NCBI GenBank assembly: GCA_905178155.1
Contig: CAJINV010000005.1
Location: forward strand, 4,071,556-4,135,555
DNA: 64,000 nucleotides
From: Amoebophrya sp. A120
Taxonomy: Eukaryota > Protista > Dinoflagellata
Direction of reading: 5' to 3'
This document shows, in pieces, positions 17,324 through 59,600 of the stretch. The number at the start of each line of letters is the position of its first letter. Within the stretch, counting starts at the first letter, position 1. A model generated the notes under the pieces. It did not search any database. It worked only from the letters and a program-made list of their open reading frames with translations, and had not been told where the DNA came from. The position numbers and the translations under genes were made by a program.

Positions 17324-19093
17324 TTACCAGATAAGAATGAGGTACACCAGGAACCACTCGCCTTTCTCCAGGGTACTGATGTTCTATAACCCTCTCAGGT
17401 GTTACAATCTCAAACGTTACAATAGAATATGGAAATCTGTGATGCAACAAGACTGCACGATCTAGCCAACTTTCATAGGATTGCGCATGACAAGTTCTGG
17501 AGTCCCAATCCGCACTACAATCTGGCGACATTTGTATTGCAGAAAGTGAAATGCTGTCCGAGTCTGTCATGTTCATCATGCAAGACAAATCTCAGACTCT
17601 ATTGCAACGCTTGAGATTGTAACACCTGAGCGGGTTATATGTTCACCTCGTTCTTCTTCTTCGGGAGCTTGTCCGTGAGGTATGCAATGGCGTCCTTTTG
17701 AAAGGCGATGGTGTCCTGATCCAACTCGGCTTATTACAATGAAAAGTGCCCCCATCCCCGAACTTGGAAGCGTTTGCATTGCAAACGTTTCCAAGTGAAA
17801 CATTCGCCCTCTTGCATCTATCAGCATCACAGGTTTCCAATCGTGAATACGAAAAGCAAAAATTTGTATTGCAAAAGACCCCAGCAAGAGCGGCGGTTGT
17901 CATGCAAGCGATGCGATACTTACACGCCTAGACTCTGCATCGGAAAGATTCATACTCCTTTCATGCATGACAAAAAGTTTTCATTTGGAAACTCCGCATC
18001 ACAAATTTTTGCAAATTCAGGGGTGGGGGGCACTTTTCACTGTAATACGGTTTGCCCCTTCTTCGGACTCGCTTCCCGCTCCTCGATTTTCTCCAGTGCC
18101 TTCAACAGCTTGCCCCGCACCCCGTCTTCCGTTTTATTACAGTGAAAAATGCCCCCACCCCCAAAGTTGCAAAAATTTGTGATGCGAAGATTCCAAATGA
18201 AAACTTTTTGTCATGCATGAAAGGAGTATGAATCTTTCTAATGCAGAGTCTAGGCGTGTATCGCATCGCTTGCATGAGAAGCGCCGCTCCTGCTGGGATA
18301 TTTTGCAATACAAATTTTTGCTATTCGCGATCGGAAATCTCTGATGCTGATAGATGCAAGAGGGCGAATGTTTCATTTGGAAAAGTTTGCAATACAAATG
18401 CTCCCAAGTTTGGGGGTGGGGGCATTTTTCATTGTAATACGTTTCGCGTTGGATTTTCTGGGCCTCCTTGATGAAATTCCGGTACATCTTTCGTTCCGCC
18501 TCCTGGTCAATGTTCGTGACGCCGTACTTGCACCGAACCACGATTTTGTCATCCTCCTCGTCTATCCACTCGAAAATCTGCAGCAGCGCACCCCCAGTGT
18601 CAACGAGCACGAACCGCAAGGCGTGAGTAATGTAGTCGCAGCCGTCCCTCTATCAAATTGAAAAACTGTGCCCCCGCCCCAGTAGATTTTATTTCAGAGA
18701 GCGTTTGTACTTCCAAGCCCCCACGACCCTTGATGGTGGAAAAACAAACTCGCAGCCCTGTGCAAGTAGTACTATGTCAGCAACGCGACTTTTCCTCCCA
18801 GAATAATCAAATTTTGCGCTGCCCAGAATAATCAAATTTTGTATTGCGCAGCGGTTCAACATCGTTTTCGTTAGCGATGTCTGTAATAAGGTGAGAGCCG
18901 CGCAACAAGCCTGGTCGGATTCTGGACCGAATCGAAACGAATGAATTTAGTATAGATACATCACATTCATGAGAAAGAGATTCTTCATGTGGAAGCTCTG
19001 CAAGGCAAACACTTCTTCTTTCTGGGGATGCGGAACAACTTTTCAGTGTGATAGGACCGCCATCATGCGCTTCTTCGTCGCTTCATCGTCCAT
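17324..19093 (-). CDS. Hypothetical protein split by four introner-derived introns
   Basis: Reconstructed MDDEATKKRMMA|RDGCDYITHALRFVLVDTGG...KIQRET|EDGVRGKLLKALEKIEEREASPKKGQT|ELDQDTIAFQKDAIAYLTDKLPKKKNEVN|ISTLEKGEWFLVYLILIW*. It may instead splice on into the coding-like ORF 16530..16970. Confidence 0.7.
17385..17639. mobile_element. Introner family 6
   Basis: TATAACCCTCTCAGGTGTTACAATCTCAAACGTTACAATAGA ... TCTATTGCAACGCTTGAGATTGTAACACCTGAGCGGGTTATA; TSD TGTTC. Confidence 0.93.
17732..18047. mobile_element. Introner family 4
   Basis: TATTACAATGAAAAGTGCCCCCATCCCC ... GGGGTGGGGGGCACTTTTCACTGTAATA; TSD CGGCT/CGGTT (1 mismatch). Confidence 0.93.
18135..18439. mobile_element. Introner family 4, inverted relative to 17732-18047
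   Basis: TATTACAGTGAAAAATGCCCCCACCCC ... GGGGTGGGGGCATTTTTCATTGTAATA; TSD CGTTT; interior is a close reverse complement of the neighbouring copy. Confidence 0.95.
18651..19053. mobile_element. Decayed family-4-like introner, now a GT-AG intron (18650-19057)
   Basis: Ends TATCAAATTGAAAAACTGTGCCCCCGCCCC / GGGGATGCGGAACAACTTTTCAGTGTGATA. No TSD match, but the in-frame GT-AG intron is exactly element+5. Confidence 0.75.
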
Positions 19094-26099: not shown

Positions 26100-29000
26100 T
26101 CATGCTTGATATGAGGACCGTGCTGAGGCTCCGGAAGCGCTCCGTGGTCTCGTCGCAGAAGGTTCACAACGATGAACCGTTTGACCCACAACAGCGGCAG
26201 CACTCGCATCGCCGTCCACCACGGAACAAACGCATGCAGCTGCTTGAGTACTTTGTTCATCACCGAGCACCACGGAACTTCTTAGCTGGCACGAAAGTTC
26301 ATAAGGTTGAATTTGGGCACCGATTCGAACATCTCCACCATCGAGCCGGCGTATCAAAGTGCACCACAACTAAACTTACATCTTCCGCGGTCATCATTAC
26401 ACGCAAAGTTGCAAAGAGCCAACAACTTCTGTCGCAGCAGTTTTTTTTTCTTTTCTGCGCGCCGGCACTGCATAAGTAATTGCATGACCAGCACCAGGGG
26501 ATGAAATCGAAGTGCAAGTGATACAACAACTGTTACTAGGATTCAAGTCCTCCTACAAAATCGAGCGAAAGGAGAGAGGGTGTAAGAATTCTTGTTATGC
26601 ACTCTGATATGGCGCGATCGTGCAGCTCGCTGGACCCTTTTGCGATGGCGGTCTGACCCATGTCCCACATGTCCCCCATGCGGCCTTCCATGAGGTCCAC
26701 GTCATAGGAAAAGTGCAGATATGGATTGTAAAAATGTCTGGGTCTGGAAGATTGCAACTTGTCATGGTAAATCTGAAGCATGCAAAAATCTGTGTTGCAT
26801 GAGTGCCAAAAGCTGTCCACTTTTGACCAAGTTGGAACGGAGTTTCTCATGCAGAATAGGAATGCCAGAGGCTTCGCAGAGTCTGTCATGCTAAGTCCCG
26901 CATTCCAGACCTCATGGGTCATGGAAAATCTGCATGACAAGTCTACACTCTTCCAGACCCAGACATTTTTACATTTGATAGCAGATACTGTTTGCCGACC
27001 CGAAAGGGCATGATGGACTTGCCCCCCCGCCGGGCCAGGATGGACTGGCACTCTTCCTTGCAGAAGTGCGACTTCTATCAACTGTAAAAATGTCTGGGTC
27101 TGGAAGAATCCAACTTGTCATCCTGATTTTGGATTCTAAAAAAATCTGTATTGCATGAGCAGCAAAGAGAGTCCAAGTGTTGCTACACGGAAAGAGCATT
27201 TGCCATGCGATGTAGGCATCAGGAAGCCCTCACAAAATCTGTGATGCTAGGGCATGCATCACAGACATCAGGAGTCATGCAAAACGTGCATGACAAACCT
27301 GGCAATCTTCCAGACCCAGACATTTTTACATTTGATAACTTCAGCGTGACCACGGGGTTCGTGTTCTCGAAGTTGAAGCCCAGTTTTCGCTCCACGTCCC
27401 TGCATATCAAATGCAAAAGTGTCTGGGTCTGGAAGGTTGAAACTTGTGATGCGCATTTCACAACACAGAAAAATCTCTCATGCATAGGCAGCAAAAGTTG
27501 CCCATTTTCTGTCACCAAAGTCAGAGACTTGTCATGCGGATTCTGCATTGCGAACGCTTCTCGAGACCTGTGATGCTAGAGCTTCCATGCCAGACCTTCT
27601 GTGTCATGCAAAAGCAGCAGGATTCTTCCAGACCCAGACATTTTTACATTTGATACTGAAATGCACCCCGTCTCCCTCGGCTTGCATCTCGTGGCTGACC
27701 TGCCGGGGGTATCAAATGTAAAAATGTCGGGGTCTGGAAACTTGTAATGCTGCGTTGGGAATAGTGAATGCTCTGTAATGCACAGGCACGCATGAGAAAT
27801 ATCTGCGCTGCTTTGTGTTGCGTTTTTCGCATGAGAAACTGCGTTTTTGCATGACAGGCAAAAGCGTCTCTTCTTGGACACACACCACAAACTTTTTTAT
27901 CATGCCAGACAAGCATGACAAGTCTCGCAATCTTCCAGACCCAGACACTTTTACATTTGATAGGGGGCGCACCGCAAACCGCAGCAGGAACAGGTAAAGC
28001 CCAGCCGCTGTGAAGAAGTAGCCTAAAAACTTGTCCAGCGGGAACCTCGAGGCGGCGAGGATGTCCGCAATCTTATCCTCCTCCTCCGGGGTCAGATGCG
28101 TGTCGCAGAGAAAAGAGCTAGCACGGCACAATAAATTGATGCAAAAACAAACAGATACATGAAAAGATCTGCGCTGCATAGCATAAACACCCCCCTCGTC
28201 AGGGCATTTTACAATCAAATGATCCCCTACCAGCTTTTTTCTTTTTGATAGTGTGAGAGCTTGATTTGTAACTGGTTAAAAAACTTCTCGGTTCGGTACT
28301 GCCACCACGGTATGCTGCCAGCGAGGAACCCGATGATGACGGCGAACATCTCTAGTGACACCACGGAAAGCCTATGGAAGCGTCAGGATTGAAATCGTCA
28401 AAGTTGAAATAATTTTAATTTGTGATACATAAAATGCAACCCGCAAAGCGCCTGTCTTGCAGAGTAGGCAAGGGAGGCATATTGCAAGCCTGTTGAGGGG
28501 CAGAAATAGAGCTGCTAAAGTAGCATGACAAAAGGCGTCTTCCTTACCCAAACAGCATTACAAACTGGATTTAGGCACCACCAAACTTGTCATGCGCCAC
28601 TTGAAAACTGGGCTCCAACTGGCATCCATTTTATGCATGACAAACTATTTCAACTCTGTCTCTGACGATTTCAAACCTGACACATCCATAAAGCCGCGCG
28701 CTCGTGTAGAAGGTCAATTTCGACGACATCAGGTGCAAATATTTCTGGCTGAAATACATCCACACGGCCCACAGGATCAGATTCCAAAACAGCAAATGTA
28801 TGAATGTCGGGCAGGCCAGGTATGACCTGTCAAGATCGATTGTTAGCAAGGATCTTCTTATTTCTTAGGGCGGTTGATTTACTTACTTATTTGTTTCTTC
28901 AGTTCGATCATCTTCAACCAGCAGCCACTTTGGGGCCTTGAACCTTTGATGCCGCGCCCAGGCTGCACAGGGAAAAAGAAAAGATAAAGAAGATATTTCA

Positions 29001-32000
29001 TGACGCAATTCCGTTTTTAAGCAGAAGGACGCCACCCGAGGGAGGTTTTGAAGGAGTTATATATGTTTATGAAGTGAGAGTGACAAATAAACTACACTTA
29101 CATCAGCACACAGCAGAGCGGTAGTGTGAAGTTGACCGCGTAATCCCAGGCGAGGTAAACCATCGGCGGCTCGCAGTGCAGCTCTGCTTTCCTGACCTCT
29201 TGAATACGGGCTGACCATACGTCGTCCGTGAAGGGAATAAACGAGTTATACAGCCGCAACAGCCGTCGCAGGACGTAACCGGTGAGCGGCCAAAGCAAAT
29301 ACGGCATCAGAAAAGTGCCCGGTACCAGAAGCTGTAGTCGAGAAATTTATTGAGTAACGCATCTTCAAAGTCAACATGATATTGCGCACAATTATCTCCT
29401 TATCATGCCTGGATCTGGAAGTTCTTAGCCAGTTAGTTTTAGTTGTGAGCTGCTTCGTCAGCCAAATAATTCTCAAAATTATATTTTAGCTGAATTTTGT
29501 TATCGTCTTAGCAAAAACATGTTTTGAGGTCGAAGCAAAATAGGAGACAGAAGTAATGCTTTGCTTTACCTCATACAGTTGCTTGCCCAAATAGGTTTCC
29601 TCTCCTAAAGCGTCCTTGTCTCGCTGCTCGGCCTTTTCGCCGAAAAACACTTGGCCAAACACGATATAGACAGAAAAGCCGGTGTTCAGGACAAAAAGTG
29701 CGGAATAGCTGATCATGACCACAAGCCACTGCGACCTGCGGTAGCGGAAGGGGAGGGCGACAGCGATGTACCAAAACATGAGTCCAACCACACCGTTGCC
29801 ACTGGAAAAAAGGATCTATCCTGCGCAAAAGCGCACTTGCTACCCAAACCAGTACCAGATCGTTTTCACCTAAATTTGCATGCCCAGGATGTGTCAAGTC
29901 GTGGGTGGCCCGCCCACGAGAAGCATTTTGGTGCTTGGAGGACGTTTGTCATGCATTGAGGAAGCAATCAGACTGCGCAACTTGTTGACGTAGCTTCACT
30001 AGTACCCATTCACGACCGCACTGCCAGTTTGCACGGGTCATGTTGCGCAACTACAGGCAAAACTTCTCGACTCGTGACGCGAAGTTTCCATCTTGACCAT
30101 GCTGGTGTTGAGGGTACTACGTATTTACACGAGATAGGATCCCAAGAAAGGTCATGGCCCATCCCGAGGGCACGTTCGCAGACTCCTGCAAGGAGTTGAG
30201 AATAAAGACGATCGCCGGCGCATACATCAAGAGACCGTACAACACAATCTGGATCACGAACCGGATCGGGCCGCCTATCCAACTTTCGTAGAAGGACTTC
30301 GATGTGTCGAAGTTGCCCCACAAAATGTCGCCTGGTTCCACGTTGTGCTATCGTGTAGAAAAAAACTTTAATCACGTAAAAAGAATTAGAATTACATTTT
30401 ATGCTACAACCACATGCAAAATATAGTTGGTTGTGTCTTGCAAGAAGTGCACGGTTTGATTCTCAGCATGGAACAAGGGACCCAACCATCATCCCCGCTG
30501 GCCGCGTATCCTCGTTCATGCTCTACCCAACGGGATCAACATGATGCTAGCACTTTTCCACGCGATATGTGCCGCTCGAAGATCATAATCGGAAATGCGT
30601 CCTCCAATGCTTTGCGTGTAGCCGCCGCACTGCTGAGAGCGGAAGGCGCGGAGGGCGGTGCTGCAGAGCGGGCACTGCGAAGGCGAATCTCCTCGAGCTC
30701 GGCGGGAGAAAAACGCTCAAATACCTTGCGCTGCTCCGCCTGCAGTCGCTGCACACACACATCCACATCCTTTTCGTAGTCACAAAAACAATACACCGCC
30801 CCCCCGCACTCTCCAGGGAAAAAACCGCGCTAGTAGTGTACCTCTAACTTCTTTTTGGGTGGCAACTGCAGCTGCAGCAACACCACCAGCATGCGCATGG
30901 TGCATGTTCTGCCTCACAAATAAAACCTGCCACACGGCAAAAAATCTTTTATGCGAATAAATATTTGTACGCTAGAAAAAATGCTGCGGTGTTGAAAAGC
31001 TACATTAGGGGTACTCAACTACACAGTTTTTTTGTGTGATAAGGACGGCATTTGCCGCAACTCCTCACGCAGCTCCTCGATCTGCTCCTCCGTAAAATCC
31101 GGCGCAACCAGGCCAACCTGCAGATCCCGAGCGGTTTCTTTGTAGAGGCCACCGCTTCGCGGTCTTTGATGATTCGCAAAATGATTTTTTGAAACTAACA
31201 TAGACATACAACATTCATAATCATTTTCATTGGACAACTTTATTCCGCATAAGAATAAGTATGAGTATCTGCAATACACTGACATATTTCCGCATTTCTG
31301 GATCCCGTTCCTGCGCGGCCAATAGGTCAAGGCTCGGCGCGCCGGCGGGTTGGAGTAAAGCGGATCCCTGGGGGACCGCCGTTGTGAGTCCAGAGCTGTG
31401 GTCACTGAGCTCGGTGGTGACTTCTATCTCTTGCTTTTTGCTCTGTGCCACTGCGTCCCGCAGCTGTTTTCCGGTGGGCGTGAGAAAGCACAAGAAAAAC
31501 TCCTGCAAATACAGCCAGCTCCAGGGAAACCGGTAGTCGGTAATCTGCAGCTCGCGTGCTGAGGCGGAGCCCGTGCTGTTCTGTCCCGACAGAAACTCTT
31601 CCCGTTCCGCATCGTACACAGGTATACTGTGCTCAGGCGATATTACAATCTCTGCGTTTACAATGAAATAACTGTGATAAGTTTGTCGCGTGCTCCTGTC
31701 GTGAGCATCGAAAGCAATGTCTGAGTCTGATAGACATTTTGACTTGTTTCCGTCACTCACATACAAACTTCGGGAGATGAGATCAGGGCGGCAATTTTGC
31801 GATTGCGCTTCCGAGAGTTCTTGCGTTTACGATGCACATCGGTATCAAGAGAGTACAACCGCGACTGAGACTGAGGGGTCAAGCAACCCGATCTGCATGA
31901 GTAGCAGCAGCCAAAGAAAAAAGGAATCTGTAACAGCAGAGCCTGTAACACCAACGCGAGCTGTAACAGTTTTGAGCACCTTCTTGTCCGCGCGGGCAGG

Positions 32001-35000
32001 CCTATCCAAGAACAAAGTGCCACCAATGGGAAACGGGAATGCTTTCACTTTCATGCTTCTCTGGAATGACGTCACGCGCGCGCCAAAATGAAAGTGCTTC
32101 GCTTCAATTTCATCAATACTTATACGAAAAAGCTGCACTTGCGCTGGTGTGCACTCCAAGACACAGAGAGAAACTGCTTTCTTGCTCATGGACGGAAGTG
32201 GGCCGCTTGTAGTTCCGCGCTCCAACCCCCAAATTTGAAATCAGACATAAAGTATTTGCTTTTCTGAAGACCCTGGTGGTGACCACGATCAGGACGGTTG
32301 CAAGGGATACAGCACCTTGTCGCAGATGTCATCCAGAGAGAGCCCGTTTTTGGGCAGAACCCGGTGCTCCTTGTAGTCGTGCGCAAGACTGGTGCCGATT
32401 AGGAGGTTGCGGCTCGGTGCTGAAAGGGTGGTGCCGCTGCTGTGCGGGGAGTTCCGCCGGCTGCTTGCTAGACTGGTGCCGCACTTCTCCTGGAAGAAAG
32501 ACGTCACCTCGTCCAGGTTCAGGGGTACGTGGGTGGGTAACCCTTCCACGATGAAGCAGTAGTCGCTCATATCGGCGTTGTCCGCATCGAACATGCGCTC
32601 CTCCCGCTTCTGAAAACAAGCGAAAAGGAGAACGGCGAGAAAGGTAAACACGATGAGAATCCAACTCGCCTTTTCTGCCAGCTGCGCGAACTCGTACCGC
32701 TGTAGCTCCACAACCTTAAAGTTGCCGGTCTGTGCCCCGTGCGAAACACCCGCGTCGCGCGAGAAGGCCGCAAGCAACTGCTTGGTATCCAAGATAGACA
32801 TCCCCCCGGCCTCGTTTGAGGGTGTAGTACTGGGAGCTGCTGCCACTTCCGACGAGGAGAGCTGCCTTTCTTGCCTGCCATCGAGGAGTTCGAATGGCTG
32901 TGGCAGCTGCAGTGGGTTTTTTTCGCGGCCGATAAACTCTGGTACTACATGTAGTCCCGAAGATACAGTATTTACTCTAGATGAAGCTGTTGCAGCTGCG
33001 GATGTAATAGCTTCTTCTGTTCGCAATGACCGCGTCCGCGTCCCCGCAACGGCCGCGACATTAGCCGGGCCAGCGAGCGTACCCACGGGTGGTTTGTACT
33101 TGTTGAGGCCGTGAAGGTTTTCCAGGTTTGGACACTCGTCCCGGAAGAGTGGCACATTAGACAGCGCGGATGTCACACACAAAAAAGTAGCTAGCACAAC
33201 ATACATTCGATTGGAATGAATGCAAAAATTAGAATTACATTATTACGTCTGTTTTTCTTTTTTTGAAATCATAAAGATAAAAAACAAAAAAAACCGTCAT
33301 CATTGTCATTGGCGAGCCCATACTAGCATCGCTCTTATTTATCTCTTGGCTGCGTTTTGTGTTCATTCTTGCACGACCAATGTGATTATATTATGCTAGC
33401 TTTCTTCTCTACTAGGGTAGTGGACTGGTGCTGGACATAGCCACTAATTCCGTAGCCGACCACTGCCCAGAGACCGATGAAGATCAGCCAATTGTAGTAC
33501 ATCGGTACCCCAACGCCGCAAATGTAGTCGCGATGCATATTGGTCCGGCAGTAGCTGGGGACCTCCGAGCTCACCACTGCGCGCCCGTCGGGATTCTCAA
33601 CGGTCCGCGTAACCGTGGGAAAGCACCGCTTTACGTGATCGGCGGCCGCCTTCACGATAGCGGGCCGGCCGGCCGGACGAAAAAGCTTGATCAGCGTGTG
33701 TGGCAGGCAGATCGCGATGGCCACGAACATAAAATACGAAAAATAGGCAAATCCGTTTGCGTCGAGCATGTAGGTGCAGCTTCCGTCGCTTGCAAGCTTG
33801 TACGCCGGCTCACTGCACTCCTTGCACACTTTCCTACTCATGTTGTCGCACCTGCAAAAAAAAAATTCAGGACTCTTCTACTATTTGTCGAGCATTGCGC
33901 TCGCCCCCGCACCCGGACCTCATAACAAGTTTCGTCCTATTTCTAGTGAAGTATTTTCACATTTAGATTTACGTTGCAAATAAAAAGAAATGATACAAGA
34001 CGCAGCCGACGACCTCGCACACGTTGCAGGTTTGCGTGGTTGCGTCGGCAAATTCAACGCCCTTCAAACCGGAGCCGGCGACGCACTTTTCTTCGGCCAC
34101 GCACTTCGCCACGCATGTATGCAATGCAGATGAGGCAGCGCACTGATACAAAAAAATGAAAATCGCATGACTACACACTACCTCGTGAGCAGAAATGAAT
34201 GCAATTGGTCCCCTATTGATCGTCACGGCTGCGACAATCTAATTTATCGTGACGACTGCGACACTTTTGAAGAGGATAGCAGGGGAAGTACTGCGACTGG
34301 TCTACAAAGTATCCAAGGAAACAACTGTGTCAGTGCAAGTTGAAATTTCTTGCCGTGATAGCGTCCCATTTCTCTATTTGCAATCGTGCTCTACTACCTA
34401 GTGCATGACTATGACAGGAAAGACTGGGACTGCCACGCAACGCTAGAAATACGTGAGCACACATCATACAATGGCGGGCACGAAAAATGTAGCATAGAAA
34501 GAAAATTGTTTGCACTGTTGCGGATTTACACTACGTGACACACGTTTTTTGTTGCATAGGAAGGGGCAGCTGGCGGGGCAGGAACTGACGAGGTGCAACA
34601 CGTCGCTGCAGCTGTTATATAGAGCGGAAGTGACCGTGAGTGATTTTCGTGTCTGTAGTTGCTACTAAATTAATAGCCCGGAGAAACTGAAACATCGCAC
34701 TTGCTATGCAACTTCGCTACTTTGGAAAAAGCACACCAATTCGCAATCAACTCCACGGGTGCTCGAGTAACGTTTTGGATTTGGTTCTTATGGCTTTGCG
34801 CATGCTCTGCATGAGGACAAACCAAAGCGCGTCGCCTGGGTTTTTTCTTACTACTAGGACTTCTAGCAGCAATCAATCTGGAAGATCACTCACTTCCTGC
34901 CCTCCATATGTTTTGGTAGGGGATTGCGCACCGCACTGTGGATTTTCCGTCGGGAAGCAGGAATCCACAGGAGCTCCCCTGGTCGTGTTGCGCAGATGCA

Positions 35001-35308
35001 CTACCGTCATCCTCCGCCGCGCCACCACTGCCCGCGTCAGCGTCGCTCAGTTGCCTCGTCCGCTCAACTACAGCACTAACTGCGGCCTTTCCTCTTTCAT
35101 TTTCGTCTACAGAGACAGACGTTCCAGCGGATGGCCTCGTCCTGCTGGGCGTTTCTGGGGTGGAAGAACGACCGAGGACTCCTGTAGTCGACATTCGCTG
35201 AAGTAGCAATAGCCACGGGAGGAAACTCTTGCTCGCTTTTACCCAGCACCTGCAAGACGAGCCCATTGCTTTCCCGTTTTGGACACCTACCGATATCGTG
35301 GTCTGCAT
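26100..35308 (-). CDS. OSCA/TMEM63 (CSC1)-like membrane channel with Cys-rich N-terminal region, many exons
   Basis: Motifs GVGVPMYYNWLIF, DADNADMSDYCFIVEGLP, EPGDILWGNF and PPMVYLAWDYA, multiple TM segments, and N-terminal SCPASCPF / CNVCEVVGC / CKECSEPAYKL. Removing five introners gives continuous frames. Gene ends are approximate. Confidence 0.7.
26720..26980. mobile_element. Introner family 1 (left end of TATGG type)
   Basis: TATGGATTGTAAAAATGTCTGGGTCTGG ... ACATTTGATA; TSD GCAGA; GKQYL|HFSY. Confidence 0.95.
27076..27337. mobile_element. Introner family 1
   Basis: TATCAACTGTAAAAATGTCTGG ... TACATTTGATA; TSD ACTTC; VTLK|SHFC. Confidence 0.95.
27405..27655. mobile_element. Introner family 1
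   Basis: TATCAAATGCAAAAGTGTCTGG ... TACATTTGATA; TSD CTGCA/CTGAA; GVHF|RDVERK. Confidence 0.93.
27710..27962. mobile_element. Introner family 1
   Basis: TATCAAATGTAAAAATGTCGGGG ... TACATTTGATA; TSD GGGGG; AVRP|RQVSHE. Confidence 0.95.
28373..28690. mobile_element. Introner family 2
   Basis: TATGGAAGCGTCAGGATTGAAATCG ... CGATTTCAAACCTGACACATCCATA; TSD AAGCC; TSARL|SVVSLEMF. Confidence 0.95.
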
Positions 35309-52697: not shown

Positions 52698-53038
52698 TAT
52701 CCTGTGCAAATGTGCCTAGGGGGTAGGATATTTGCTTCGAAGCTCGAAGCTTTCAGCACAAAAGGCGAAAGTTTGCCACGCAAAAAACGCGAGCTTGCGT
52801 GAAGGACCGAGCAGATTGAAACTTTTCAAAAAGGTCGGCAATTGTCGACCTTTTTCAAAAATTGCAATCTGCTCGGTCCTTCACGCAAAGTCACATTTTT
52901 CTTTTAGAGCTAAATCATTTCTGCTACGCCAGAAGCTGGTGTAGAAGCAGGTGAAGAAGTTGGTGTAGAAGCTGGTGCAGAAGCTGGCGAGTATATTCGT
53001 CAGCTTTTCCTACCCCCTAGGCACATTTGCACAGGATA
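52698..53038. mobile_element. MITE with TAT...ATA ends and 5-bp TSD, apparently intergenic (family 7)
   Basis: Perfect 31-bp TIR TATCCTGTGCAAATGTGCCTAGGGGGTAGGA; TSD AGCAA; internal palindrome 52795-52888; short tandem AGAAGCTGGTGT repeats at about 52931-52990. Confidence 0.92.
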
Positions 53039-53654: not shown

Positions 53655-55508
53655 TTACACATACACTGGCTGTTTCCTGCATGATACCGAGTCAAGAAGT
53701 GCCAGCCTGTCGGCTGTGAGGTCGCTCCCAGTCCCATCGCCACCCGTCACTCTACTAGAACTAGCTCTCAAGTTCTGGTGTTGAAGATCACCTTCCTGCT
53801 GCATTAGCCCAGATGTCGTGTCTACGCCGCGAGAAGAGCGAGCGAAGCTCAATCTCCCCATGGCCATTTGTGCGCCTACCGATTTGCCAGTGGTACCGCC
53901 GGAGAAGTGAGACTGTGTGCGCATTTTTCGACTTCGAGGCGAAAAGCACCACGACCAGAGGACGAGCTTGCTCGATTCGTGTTCCTCGAAAAATGCTGGA
54001 GGTTGCATGAATGAATACAATACAACCAAAGATATCAAAAGATATTGACGAGGCGGGGGGATCACGCGGCGTACACACGCTTACTCACAGTCACATAGAA
54101 ACATGAGGCATTATCAACATCATTTTTGTGAGAACAGAAGAGGTGTGCGCTAGTTGTTCATCTTGATGCACAATTTTCTATTTCTTTACGGTCGTAACCG
54201 CAACCAAGATCTTGGTTTGAAATTTTTTCTTGTGGCACGTGGACACTTGTTCAGATTTGATATCGAAAACGGACCGTCGGGGGCGGCTTCAAACTGCGTT
54301 CCTGCTAATCTGCCCTCGTGAGTGGAGGATCGGGCTTGCGATCTGGGATCTGCGTATCCGGAGAAGCACTCGGCGTGGTACCTGGTCGATATGCGGGACC
54401 CGCGTCGCTCGGTGATGGGCTCCCCAACTTGCGTGAAAGGTTTTCGACACTCGCGGCACATGTGGCCCAGGTCACTTCTCTGCGCCAGCCGGTGTATCAA
54501 CTGTAAAAGTGTCTGGGTCTGGAAGATTCTGACACTTGTCACGCACGTTTTGCATGAGCCATGATGTCTGTGATGCATACCCTAGCAATACAGATTTTTT
54601 GAGGGCTTCTTGATGCGTATTCCGCATGACAAATGCCTTCTCAGCGTAGCAAAAATTGCATTCCCTTTGCTACTCGTCATGCAATACAGATTTTTTTGGA
54701 ATCCAGATGCAGCATCACAAGTTGCATTCTTCCAGACCCAGACATTTTTACATTTGATACGGTGCTGATAGTCCCAATACATCGTCTCGTCCCCAGCCCC
54801 AATGGTTGTTTCGCTGCACGCAAGGGAAAATGCCTTCCCCGACGCTGCAACGCTGGGATGCAGCGAGGGCGCTGCTGACCAGGTCGACCTTCGGGTCGTC
54901 GCCACGGATGCCGTGTCGTCTTGTTGTTCTATGCAAAGAAAAAAGTGTTACAGTTACACATTGTGTTGCAAAACACACAAGCGAGACGACTTCTGTCATG
55001 CGCAAAATGCTTGCGAGTCTCGTTTCGTGTGTGTTTAGTTTTGCCTTATGATCTCTGCATTACTCTGTCATGCGGGACAAAGTTTTTATTGTGATGCTGA
55101 ATTCACTACAAATGTGTAACTGTAACACTTTTTTCCTTGGATATGTTGGGTCGCACCGCCAGTAGCTCCTCCGGGGCGATCATCTCCTGAGGCACCCTGC
55201 AGCTCTGCTCCGTCCGGCTCTTCGGGCTGAATGGCTTTGCGCGACGCCGAGGTTGCATTGCCGCGGCCTCGGCGAATAAGGGTCTCGTCCGCCCGAGATA
55301 AGAGCCCACCCCGGCGGGCAGCTCCGGCTCCATGATCAGCATCGGAATTTTTGGACGAGGCGGTGCTCGTCGCGGTCACGGCTTTCGATGGCTTGGAAAA
55401 TCCTTTTTCTTCCAAGAGCTGCTGTTGACGCTCGACGAGCGAAAGCCTTGTTTTTTTCGGATTACTACTAGTCGTTCGGTGGTTTGAAGAAACTTCGTTC
55501 TCAGACAT
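53655..55508 (-). CDS. Protein with CxxC...HxxC zinc-finger-like domain
   Basis: After removing two introners: ...GATQ|QQDDTASVATTRR...YWDYQHR|LAQRSDLGHMCRECRKPF...RYHAECFSGYADPRSQ. The 3' end is uncertain and may extend to about 53.1 kb. Confidence 0.7.
54495..54759. mobile_element. Introner family 1
   Basis: TATCAACTGTAAAAGTG ... TACATTTGATA; TSD CGGTG. Confidence 0.95.
54930..55143. mobile_element. Introner family 3
   Basis: TATGCAAAGAAAAAAGTGTTACAGTTACAC ... GTGTAACTGTAACACTTTTTTCCTTGGATA; TSD TGTTC/TGTTG. Confidence 0.92.
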
Positions 55509-56660: not shown

Positions 56661-59600
56661 TTAGGCGCGGCGACTCTTCCACTGCAGCAAGGCCCCCAAA
56701 TCGTTTTGCACGAGGTGCCTATGGATGCGTCAGGTTCGAAATCGACAAAGTTGAAAGGCTTTGCCACGCATAGAAAGATAGAGATACTGTCTAAGTGGCG
56801 CATGACAAATTTTGGCAGTTCCGAAGTCCAGTCTGCCGCGCTGTTTCTACTTCGGCAAAGAAAACCGCTTCTGTCGTGCTGCTTCAGCAGCCCTACCCTT
56901 ACCCCTAAACAGGCTTGCAATCGGCCTCATTCGCCTGCTCTCTTATAGTATACAGAAACAGATCGTCGGCGGGATGCTTTTTATGGATATGCAAATTTTT
57001 CAACTTTGTGAATTTCGATCCTGAGGATTCCGTAGTGCATGTATTTCCCGTAGTTGGCCTGCCCGCGGGCCATGCCTAGAATCACTCTGGCAGCATCCAC
57101 CCCCTCGCGGTCGTTTAACTTCTTGACGAGTTCGAAGTGCGTCTCCAGGAGCGCAATGCTCTTCTCCGGCTTTTCGACCGCCAGCAGAAGGCCGAGACTG
57201 AGACACGCCTTCGCCTTATCCCGTGTAAAAAAGCGTTTCAGCCCATCGGCAAGATGGTAACTTTGCTACGGGAAGCAGCAACCTTTGGCTGTTGCGCATG
57301 ACCAGTTTGGCCTCGTAGTGCAGTCCGTTTTAGCTAGGTAGTGCATCCGCGTGATAAATCGACTACATTATCCTGGTTCCACATTAAGAGGCAATCCCCA
57401 AATAGCATTGGAACGTGCTCCTCATCATGGGGGTGCGCATGAGAAGATGAAACTTATTTTACTAGGCTTATCCTTATGCATACTGAAACTAATTTGCATG
57501 AAAACTCTGGGGTCGAGACGTTTTTACTCAGGATACGCCTGCGCTTCCAGTTCTCCGGCCTCCGCGGCCACCGTCAGCAGCAGCTCGAGCTGCAAGACCG
57601 CTTCCTCGATATTGCCCGTGGCCTCATACGCCTGCGCCAGTGCCGATCGCGCATTCGCTTCTCCCGCTCGATCCCCTTGTTTCCGACAGATATCCAGGTA
57701 TTGCTGCTGCAACCTGATATGGGAGGGGCCATTGGGAAGTCAACGAGTAGGCGAAAAAAATGATTTGTAATTGTAATTGTAGTATGTCTATGTCATGCAC
57801 TCGCACTGTCACCCACGATAATAAACATCTTCTGCCTTGCCAAGAAGTAGAATGTGCATGTGGGCGTTTTCTATATTTTTGCAGAAATTATTGAAAATAT
57901 TTTGTTTGAGGGTCTGCAGGCCCTGCAGCTGTTCGAGAAACCAAGCAGAAATTTTTGCATCACCCAACACGTGTAAGTACGACGGTCGGTCAAAAGCATC
58001 ATTCTCACAGAAGAATCTCATTGAAAATCACCATGGAGTGCTGAACATCTAAGTTGTATATGCTAAAAGTAGCAGGAGACGAATTTGAAGTGTCCGTAGG
58101 ATCGAAACCAAAGTGAACGGCGGGTGCTGAAACGCATTATGGCAGGAGCACACCGCAAAATCGTACAGAACGCGAGACCCTGACACTAAATGATCTCTGG
58201 AAAGTTTGGTCTGTTGTGGAAGCAAGTGGACTCAACGGGACGGAGGTCGAGGTGTCGATGTTTATAAGTAAGAAGTAGATACTAATTTATGCATGGCAAA
58301 TTTTTTTCTTCCCAAGTTGGCGAGTTCATCCAATCTAACATCTTCATACCTGATGGATTCTCCGTATTCTCCGGACAGAGTTTTCGCCTTGCCGAGTTGA
58401 TGGCAATTCGTGCCCTCGAGCTTACTGTCTTTCGCGAGTTTCGCACAGGCCACGCATTTCTCAAACAGGTCGCATGCGGCACGGACATCGTCGTCGGTGG
58501 GACTATTACTCAGAAATCGATCCGCCTTTCCCAGAGAAAAAAGCACAGGTAGGCCATATTTGTATAATGCAAAAAGAAATACACAGCTAAATCCGTCATG
58601 GGCCGCGGCCCCATAGCATGCTGTTTAGGATATGCAAGATTTTTTGTGTATTAGTATTTATTTTTGCATTTACATAAACAAATTATATCCTGCCTGCTTT
58701 TTTCTGTGTGATACCGCCAACACCTTGTAGACATGGCAGAGCTGGAGGGCGCTCTTTATCTGCAGTGGCAGCGCGTTGCTCTGCGTGCTTAGTTCCAGCG
58801 CAGTCTCGTGGTAGGTCATGGCGTTCTCCCAGTTTCCTAACTTCTCCTCACACGTTCCCAGATTGAGGTTGGCGGTCGCGATGGACTCCACTACGCCAGC
58901 TTCCCCGGCAACCTCCAGACAGCGATGATGAAAGTAGCGGCTTGAGGAAATCGCGTCTTGCTTCTCAAAGAAGTGTATGGATGGCAAATGTGTCTGGGTC
59001 TGGAAGATTGCAACTTGTCATGCTAAATCTGAATCATGCCAAAAATCTGTGTTGCATTTGAGTGCCAAAAGCTGTTCACTTTCGACCAAGTTGGGAGGGA
59101 ATTTCTCACGCAGGATAGGCATGACAGAGGGCTCACAGAGTCTGTCATGCGAGGTCCCGCATTCCGCCCCTCGTGGGTCATGGAAAACCTGCGTGAAAAC
59201 TTTGCACTCCTCCAGACCCAGACATATTTGCAGTTGATAAACTCGGCCAGGCCACTGTACGCGTCGACCGCCAGATGATAGTTTTTTGCGCGTCGGGAAG
59301 TCTCAGCTCGCTCCAAAACGCCTTTTAGGAACCCCAGGTCCACTGGCTTTCTTTCGTGATCCAGTTTTTTGGTGGAAGTGCCATCGTCTTTGTCGGCTGC
59401 TATCCTGAGTAAAAGCGTAGCCACACCAGAGTCAGGATGAGGATTTTGCAACACAAGCCTAGGAGTTTTGTGAGTCACGCATGGCAAGTTGCTCTATGCA
59501 GTGTAGTGCAGGTTAGCAACTGCAGCCGCGTCACAGATTCATCTGCTCATCCTGTTCACAGCATCACAAATTCCAAAACACAATTGGAAATGGCTCTCAT

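Follow-up and report, generated by a model that had tools for sequence, protein, structure and literature searches.

The element at positions 27710-27962 of the window (the 64-kb stretch of Amoebophrya sp. A120 DNA analysed here) lies in a minus-strand gene between two copies of CCCCC. The initial annotation presented it as an intron that is the cleanest test case that boundary sequence is irrelevant. The focal intron is real, spliced and of a known class, being one of approximately 30,000 elements of a described kind; the part worth following is a register rule, according to which the cut would be fixed relative to the terminal hairpin of the element.

Removal of the focal intron

The host gene, the focal intron and the adjoining exons have the following window positions:

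26282-35308, minus strand: host gene, approximately 1334 codons, 20 introns (16 TIR-type and 4 GT-AG), predicted start codon
28827-29101, 29332-29569, 31118-31277 and 33852-33996, minus strand: GT-AG introns of the gene, all starting GTA
27964-28096, minus strand: upstream exon, ending ...AVRP (contig piece 27963-28096)
27706-27963, minus strand: focal intron, 258 nt; in the proposed register, C TATCAAATG ... TTTGATA CCCC (CT...CC)
27657-27705, minus strand: small downstream exon, 49 nt, kept (side=49 at joints 27399 and 27704)

Removal was followed in assembled contigs from X5, X6 and X7, three putative RNA runs of a single sample, with RNA status guessed by the tool and strand not shown. Each of the three runs contains one contig with the joint 27704->27963, in which 258 nt are absent (with a 5-nt slide) and no letters differ from the window. 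As the initial annotation had proposed, this joint connects AVRP to RQVSHE in an open frame, and neither of the two outcomes named as evidence against it, a different junction or skipping of the small exon, was seen in the three contigs. In the DNA-like run X1, the joint has a depth of 0 and the insert is retained: X1 contigs cross both ends of the element (27632-27737 and 27938-28399), which rules out an assembly artefact. Exon skipping is ruled out by the small exon in three contigs (contigs do drop rare forms), and silent retention is ruled out since the retained intron, while in frame, contains a stop.

The X5-X7 contigs lack all 20 introns of the host gene. Because the four minus-strand GT-AG introns are among those missing, these contigs behave as spliced RNA, and we infer that X5-X7 are spliced RNA and X1 is DNA. 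It is extremely improbable that the joined contigs are themselves DNA (from a retrocopy, or from a strain without the insertions) and that removal is not RNA splicing: such a reading can draw on the guessed RNA status of X5-X7, but it is opposed by the loss of all 20 introns with no differences from the window, by an X1 depth of 0 at each of the 12 joints listed for this gene, and by an unbroken X1 contig over 28665-34900.

Joining across all 20 joints (17 taken from contig tables and three deduced from side length, bin depth or a loose end) produces a single open frame of 1344 codons. Between the focal intron and the stop lie four introners, one more than originally counted. The length of 54 nt originally given for the small downstream exon includes both repeat copies; it is 49 nt if the two flanking introns share one register. 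Two other very short exons of this gene, 31966-31998 (33 nt) and 34279-34305 (27 nt), are situated between long hairpin introns and are also kept in contigs.

In the raw RNA runs X21-X23, which carry the same species label, the unique exons of the host gene are uncovered and 215 reads fall partly on repeat. Approximately 200 raw X21 reads over 26727-26804 are 90-95% alike and represent an approximately 85-nt piece of the family with one TIR and unique flanks. This piece appears to be half of an element at a different locus and to remain in the RNA, as expected if removal needs both ends.

The predicted host protein is long, with multiple membrane passes and a cysteine-rich N-terminal part. An Atlas search with one exon gave RSN1_TM/PHM7_cyt (OSCA/TMEM63) clusters at 0.86-0.89, with unnamed top matches and a recognition value of 1854 that is below the reliable level, so that membership of the OSCA/TMEM63 family is a weak lead. 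Pfam searches with single exon-sized pieces (7 and 4) gave nothing over the cut-off. Of the 22 elements outside the gene (3996-59685), 17 have their best post-removal frame on the minus strand, which fits a cluster of co-oriented genes.

Structure and origin of the element

The components of the focal element are as follows:

27710-27962, no strand assigned: core of the non-autonomous TIR element, 253 nt; longest stop-free frame 84 codons
27933-27962, minus strand: 5' TIR arm, begins TAT; supplies intron +2 T and +3 A
27710-27739, minus strand: 3' TIR arm, finishes ATA; supplies -7 A and -5 A
27963-27967, minus strand: upstream CCCCC copy, likely target-site duplication; 4 bases exonic and 1 intronic in the proposed register
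27705-27709, minus strand: downstream CCCCC copy; 4 bases intronic and 1 exonic in the proposed register

On the plus strand, the core starts with TATCAAATG and finishes with CATTTGATA. The flanking CCCCC copies described for the sense strand are present as annotated (GGGGG at 27705-27709 and 27963-27967 of the plus strand). The 30-nt TIR arms (TAT...ATA) are complementary at 28 of 30 positions, and the TIR reads TAT CAAATGT AAAA, or TAT followed by seven variable bases and at least three A. The element is predicted to fold to a terminal stem of 28 pairs (-101.1 kcal/mol, z -5.94, equalled by 0/200 shuffles). Since the same TIR family has 13 copies in the window, 11 of them with a perfect 5-nt flanking repeat, this structure is not due to chance. 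Taken together, the TAT...ATA families comprise 25 elements with perfect 5-nt repeats in the window, and these repeats represent 24 distinct 5-mers (plus strand).

Flanking repeats of constant length and variable sequence are the pattern expected from target-site duplication by DNA transposons. The focal element combines TIRs, a duplication of fixed length and variable sequence and an absence of coding capacity, all features of a MITE or non-autonomous TIR DNA transposon. Based on these results, it is likely a non-autonomous DNA transposon with a 5-base duplication made on insertion. A search of the whole window for Rfam structured RNA families (group I/II introns, snRNAs) returned 0 matches at the gathering score. 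Two further arrangements were also observed in the window: a loopless 59-nt palindrome (52783-52900) inside the element 52698-53038, and three clustered TAT...ATA elements at 17385-18439, where 17732-18047 is related to 18135-18439 and the two have mutual long inverted arms.

Terminal dinucleotides

Sliding the junction through the repeat gives six sense-strand registers for the focal intron: CC-TA, CC-AC, CC-CC, CC-CC, CT-CC and TA-CC. On neither strand is any register GT-AG, GC-AG or AT-AC, in agreement with the initial annotation, and the terminal dinucleotides of U2 and U12 introns are thus absent. The description of the locus as the cleanest test case does not hold, as this property is common: 920 of the 1024 possible 5-mers (90%) placed around a TAT...ATA core yield no canonical register, and 13 of the 16 non-canonical introns of the host gene also have none. 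The CCCCC homopolymer contributes nothing new by itself. With a perfect homopolymer repeat and six equivalent registers, the focal intron is the least informative on the position of the cut, and RT-PCR would be blind to its register.

A proposed fixed register in the host gene

An imperfect repeat reveals the register of the cut because the mRNA carries the base of one copy at each differing position, whereas a perfect repeat hides it. Imperfect repeats flank 10 of the 16 elements of the gene, and these were used as the informative set, with k defined as the number of upstream repeat bases kept. Among these neighbours are the following:

31999-32310, minus strand: introner, unslidable; 1 nt + core + 4 nt removed, GT...CC; joint 31998->32311, both=0, three runs
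30806-31042, minus strand: introner, GTCCT/GTGCG; 3 or 4 kept; joint 30805->31043, both=1
33167-33420, minus strand: introner, TCCAC/TCCGC; 4 or 5 kept; adjacent contig pieces
34306-34559, minus strand: introner, CTTCC/CTTTG; only 4 kept; junction deduced from depths, which give 27-nt and 57-nt exons with the frame open
28097-28251, minus strand: degenerate introner, CACAC/CGCAT; 2-4 kept; joint 28096->28252
27401-27656, minus strand: introner of the same family as the focal element, TTCAG/TGCAG; 2-5 kept; joint 27399->27656, both=3
26348-26610, minus strand: introner, CGCCA/CGCCG; 0-4 kept; joint 26347->26611, both=4

The allowed values of k in the ten introners are 0-4, 2-5, 2-4, 3-4, 1-5, 4, 4-5, 2-5, 4 and 1-5. 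A value of k=4, which corresponds to removal of one base, the core and four bases, is compatible with all ten; two introners allow this value alone, and 4 is also the single value common to the 3-4 and 4-5 cases, an independent pointer to it. For elements with registers chosen separately, a common register would arise with a probability of 0.027 over all ten introners, of which three have joints deduced from bin depth, side length or a loose end. This value becomes 0.082 when the seven joints taken directly from the contig tables are used, and 0.186 when the 32003 element (31999-32310), whose repeat copies agree at 2 of 5 positions, is left out. Other elements of the window with imperfect 5-nt repeats are 58976-59239 (two positions differ), 54930-55143 and 17732-18047.

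For all 16 non-canonical introns of the gene, the removed length equals the core plus 5, and only one of the allowed registers has the form N-T-A ... A-N-A-N-N-N-N. In this register all 16 share +2 T, +3 A, -7 A and -5 A, +4 varies in two elements and -6 in three, and +1 and -4 to -1 are mixed. Save for the two unslidable junctions, the constancy of +2 and +3 is partly by construction, as cores were anchored on TA ends. A donor with +2 T and a +3 purine would be present in 16/16 in the proposed register, which for the focal intron is read from its neighbours, and the four GT-AG introns of the gene all begin GTA, matching the +2 T and +3 A of the introners. The proposed irrelevance of boundary sequence can thus be retained for position +1 and the last four bases, but not for the four constant positions.

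Published data are consistent with the same register. In Table S4 of PMC7789003, T is at +2 in 9/9 of the top A120 non-canonical sites, while 9/9 of the top A25 sites begin TT and A25 IRs begin TTA and two purines. The +2 T of this table provides independent support, to which an aligner preference for GT, AT or CT starts may contribute. No statement of a fixed Amoebophrya register was found in the literature searched; the Fig. 3 logos and Figs S19-S23 of PMC7789003, and Roy et al. 2023, may show it.

The strong form of the initial annotation, in which the cut floats inside the 5-nt repeat and every register gives the same mRNA, fits the six equivalent registers of the focal intron and the description in PMC7789003 of sites that vary relative to the hairpin, and the P values that oppose it are modest. 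We nevertheless consider it improbable, since all ten informative neighbours agree on one register, two of them with no slide, and +2 T is present in each of the top A120 sites of Table S4. The preferred reading is that of a cut at a set distance from the terminal hairpin, one base upstream of it and four bases downstream, for which this small test, with the register extended from neighbours, is suggestive. The focal intron would then span 27706-27963 (CT...CC), leaving the downstream exon of 49 nt.

Relationship to described introners

Farhat et al. 2021 (PMC7789003) reported 29,850 copies of introner elements in Amoebophrya A120, with 65% non-canonical introns; the text describes no clear splice signature and border positions that are variable or unknown, and gives the cognate transposase as not found in A120. 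The elements described there resemble the focal element in having an IR made up of TAT, seven variable bases and an A-run, a hairpin, border repeats of 3-5 nt and a length of approximately 240-260 nt, and in forming many families that lack a terminal signature and are mixed with GT-AG introns in one gene. Against that description we see no difference of kind; the imperfect repeats of the focal gene point to a single register with constant +2 T and +3 A. Having non-GT-AG ends supported by putative RNA contigs, a TAT TIR with an A-run, a border repeat and a repeated hairpin family, the focal element fits, by its features, the described A120-type introner class.

A second comparison was made with 22 of the 58 A120 rows of Gozashti et al. 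2025 (PMC12130899). In these rows most families are classed as "TIR DNA" of unknown superfamily, and many are similar to the focal element in length (250-320 bp) and TIRs (30-70 bp). GT makes up approximately a quarter of the annotated 5' sites of the large families, AT between a seventh and a quarter, and other dinucleotides approximately 45%; the GT and AT shares speak for +2 T, again with a possible contribution from aligner preference. The automated calls differ by family (co-opting both sites, co-opting the 5' and carrying the 3' site, or carrying the 5' and co-opting the 3' site), and the rows give no single register; the focal element was compared with them by description.

Possible mechanism of removal

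The TIRs, the repeat and the exact, frame-restoring removal of 258 nt are direct observations. We consider it probable that they reflect a TIR element which duplicated 5 bases, which is missing, along with one copy of the repeat, in the likely mRNA and which is cut at the 1+4 offset. Insertion by some transposase or integrase would duplicate 5 target bases, and the cut would follow in the register N|TA ... A-N-A NNNN|, fixed relative to the terminal hairpin. Because the repeat sequence is random while the register is fixed, the terminal dinucleotides would be random (CT...CC in this case), and the TIR would always supply +2 U and +3 A, like the GTA donors of the same gene. As the TIR is symmetric, an element would splice in either orientation. 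Copies in the opposite orientation (71-80% inner identity) fall in long minus-strand frames once removed; judged from these frames rather than from RNA, ends-only and orientation-free splicing is likely.

The least certain step, and a speculative one, is the cutting itself, likely the work of a host spliceosome whose requirements at +1 and for a 3' AG are relaxed; the hairpin would bring the intron ends together, and the branch point may be an A at -7 or -5. A spliceosome is favoured on two grounds: two strains that differ in their TIRs both have U and A at the canonical donor positions in this register, and 5 of the 16 spliced elements keep the four key bases despite broken pairing at +3 or +4. 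Two points count against it: the predicted hairpin pairs +2 to +4 with -5 to -7 and would hide these bases from snRNAs, and U1 was reported as not found in A25 or A120 (PMC7789003). A related Amoebophrya strain is described as having mostly GT-AG introns and U1 (PMC12005148).

The main rival to a relaxed spliceosome is a Euglena-like separate system. It accepts the same element and register, and assigns the cut to a hairpin-measuring nuclease and a ligase, as proposed for Euglena, with +2 U and +3 A constant only through the need of the transposase for TAT...ATA. Such a system would suit the strong terminal stem, the report of U1 as not found and the absence of both a 3' AG and a polypyrimidine tract, with random bases from -4 to -1, and the Euglena introns have such a design, a paired motif with fixed spacers (N3CDG...CH'GN5-6; PMC12501133). 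The nonconventional introns of Euglena are also alike in their MITE-like origin, terminal pairing and free terminal bases, but they differ in the CDG/CH'G motif, in spacers of 3 and 5-6 nt, in the purine after the intron and in belonging to an unrelated lineage (PMC12501133, PMC11282704). The euglenid pattern N3-CDG ... CH'G-N5-6 | purine is absent here, where TA(Y)...A-N-A is found with spacers of 1 and 4 nt. We regard this system as unlikely, although the strongest competitor, because the 5 of 16 elements with broken +3/+4 pairing (a small, post hoc set) retain +2 T, +3 A, -5 A and -7 A, because only the proposed register, out of six, brings T to the canonical +2, and because most spliceosomal proteins plus U2, U4 and U6 are reported present.

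That a spliceosome could adopt such introns has a precedent in Fritillaria borealis, in which a U2 spliceosome has been retuned for transposon introns (PMC13326754). Those introns are likewise transposon-derived with TIRs and a TSD and are removed by a relaxed U2 spliceosome; they differ in that the preferred ends AG-AC and AG-AT and U1 are kept, while the present introns vary freely at +1 and over their last four bases (PMC13326754, PMC11282704).

Returning to the relaxed spliceosome, we tentatively propose, as a possibility short of an even chance, that one hidden code, N-U-A ... A-N-A-N4, supplied by the TIR rules tens of thousands of Amoebophrya introns. A U1-less spliceosome would read +2 U and +3 A, use the A at -5 or -7 as the branch point and measure the 3' cut by distance without an AG; A25 would obtain the same +2 U and +3 A through its TTA TIR. 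If so, insertion at any site and in either orientation would create a perfect intron.

Implications for intron annotation

How A120-type introns are recognized has been a standing question since 2021. Under a fixed 1+4 offset, introns said to have "no splicing signature" would follow a definite code, which can be checked with public genome and RNA data. The offset would also fix the annotation of borders and pinpoint both intron ends and the adenosines that are candidate branch points, providing a handle with which to tell a relaxed spliceosome apart from a second, Euglena-like machinery.

Some introners of the host gene are prone to misleading calls. Those at 30345-30568 and 34614-34909 read AT...AC in the proposed register purely from their repeats, and annotators could take such cases for minor-spliceosome introns. 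For 31618-31965, one slide gives GT..AG on the plus strand though the host gene is on the minus strand; with introners of this type, motif-guided aligners could choose the wrong strand and call the intron canonical.
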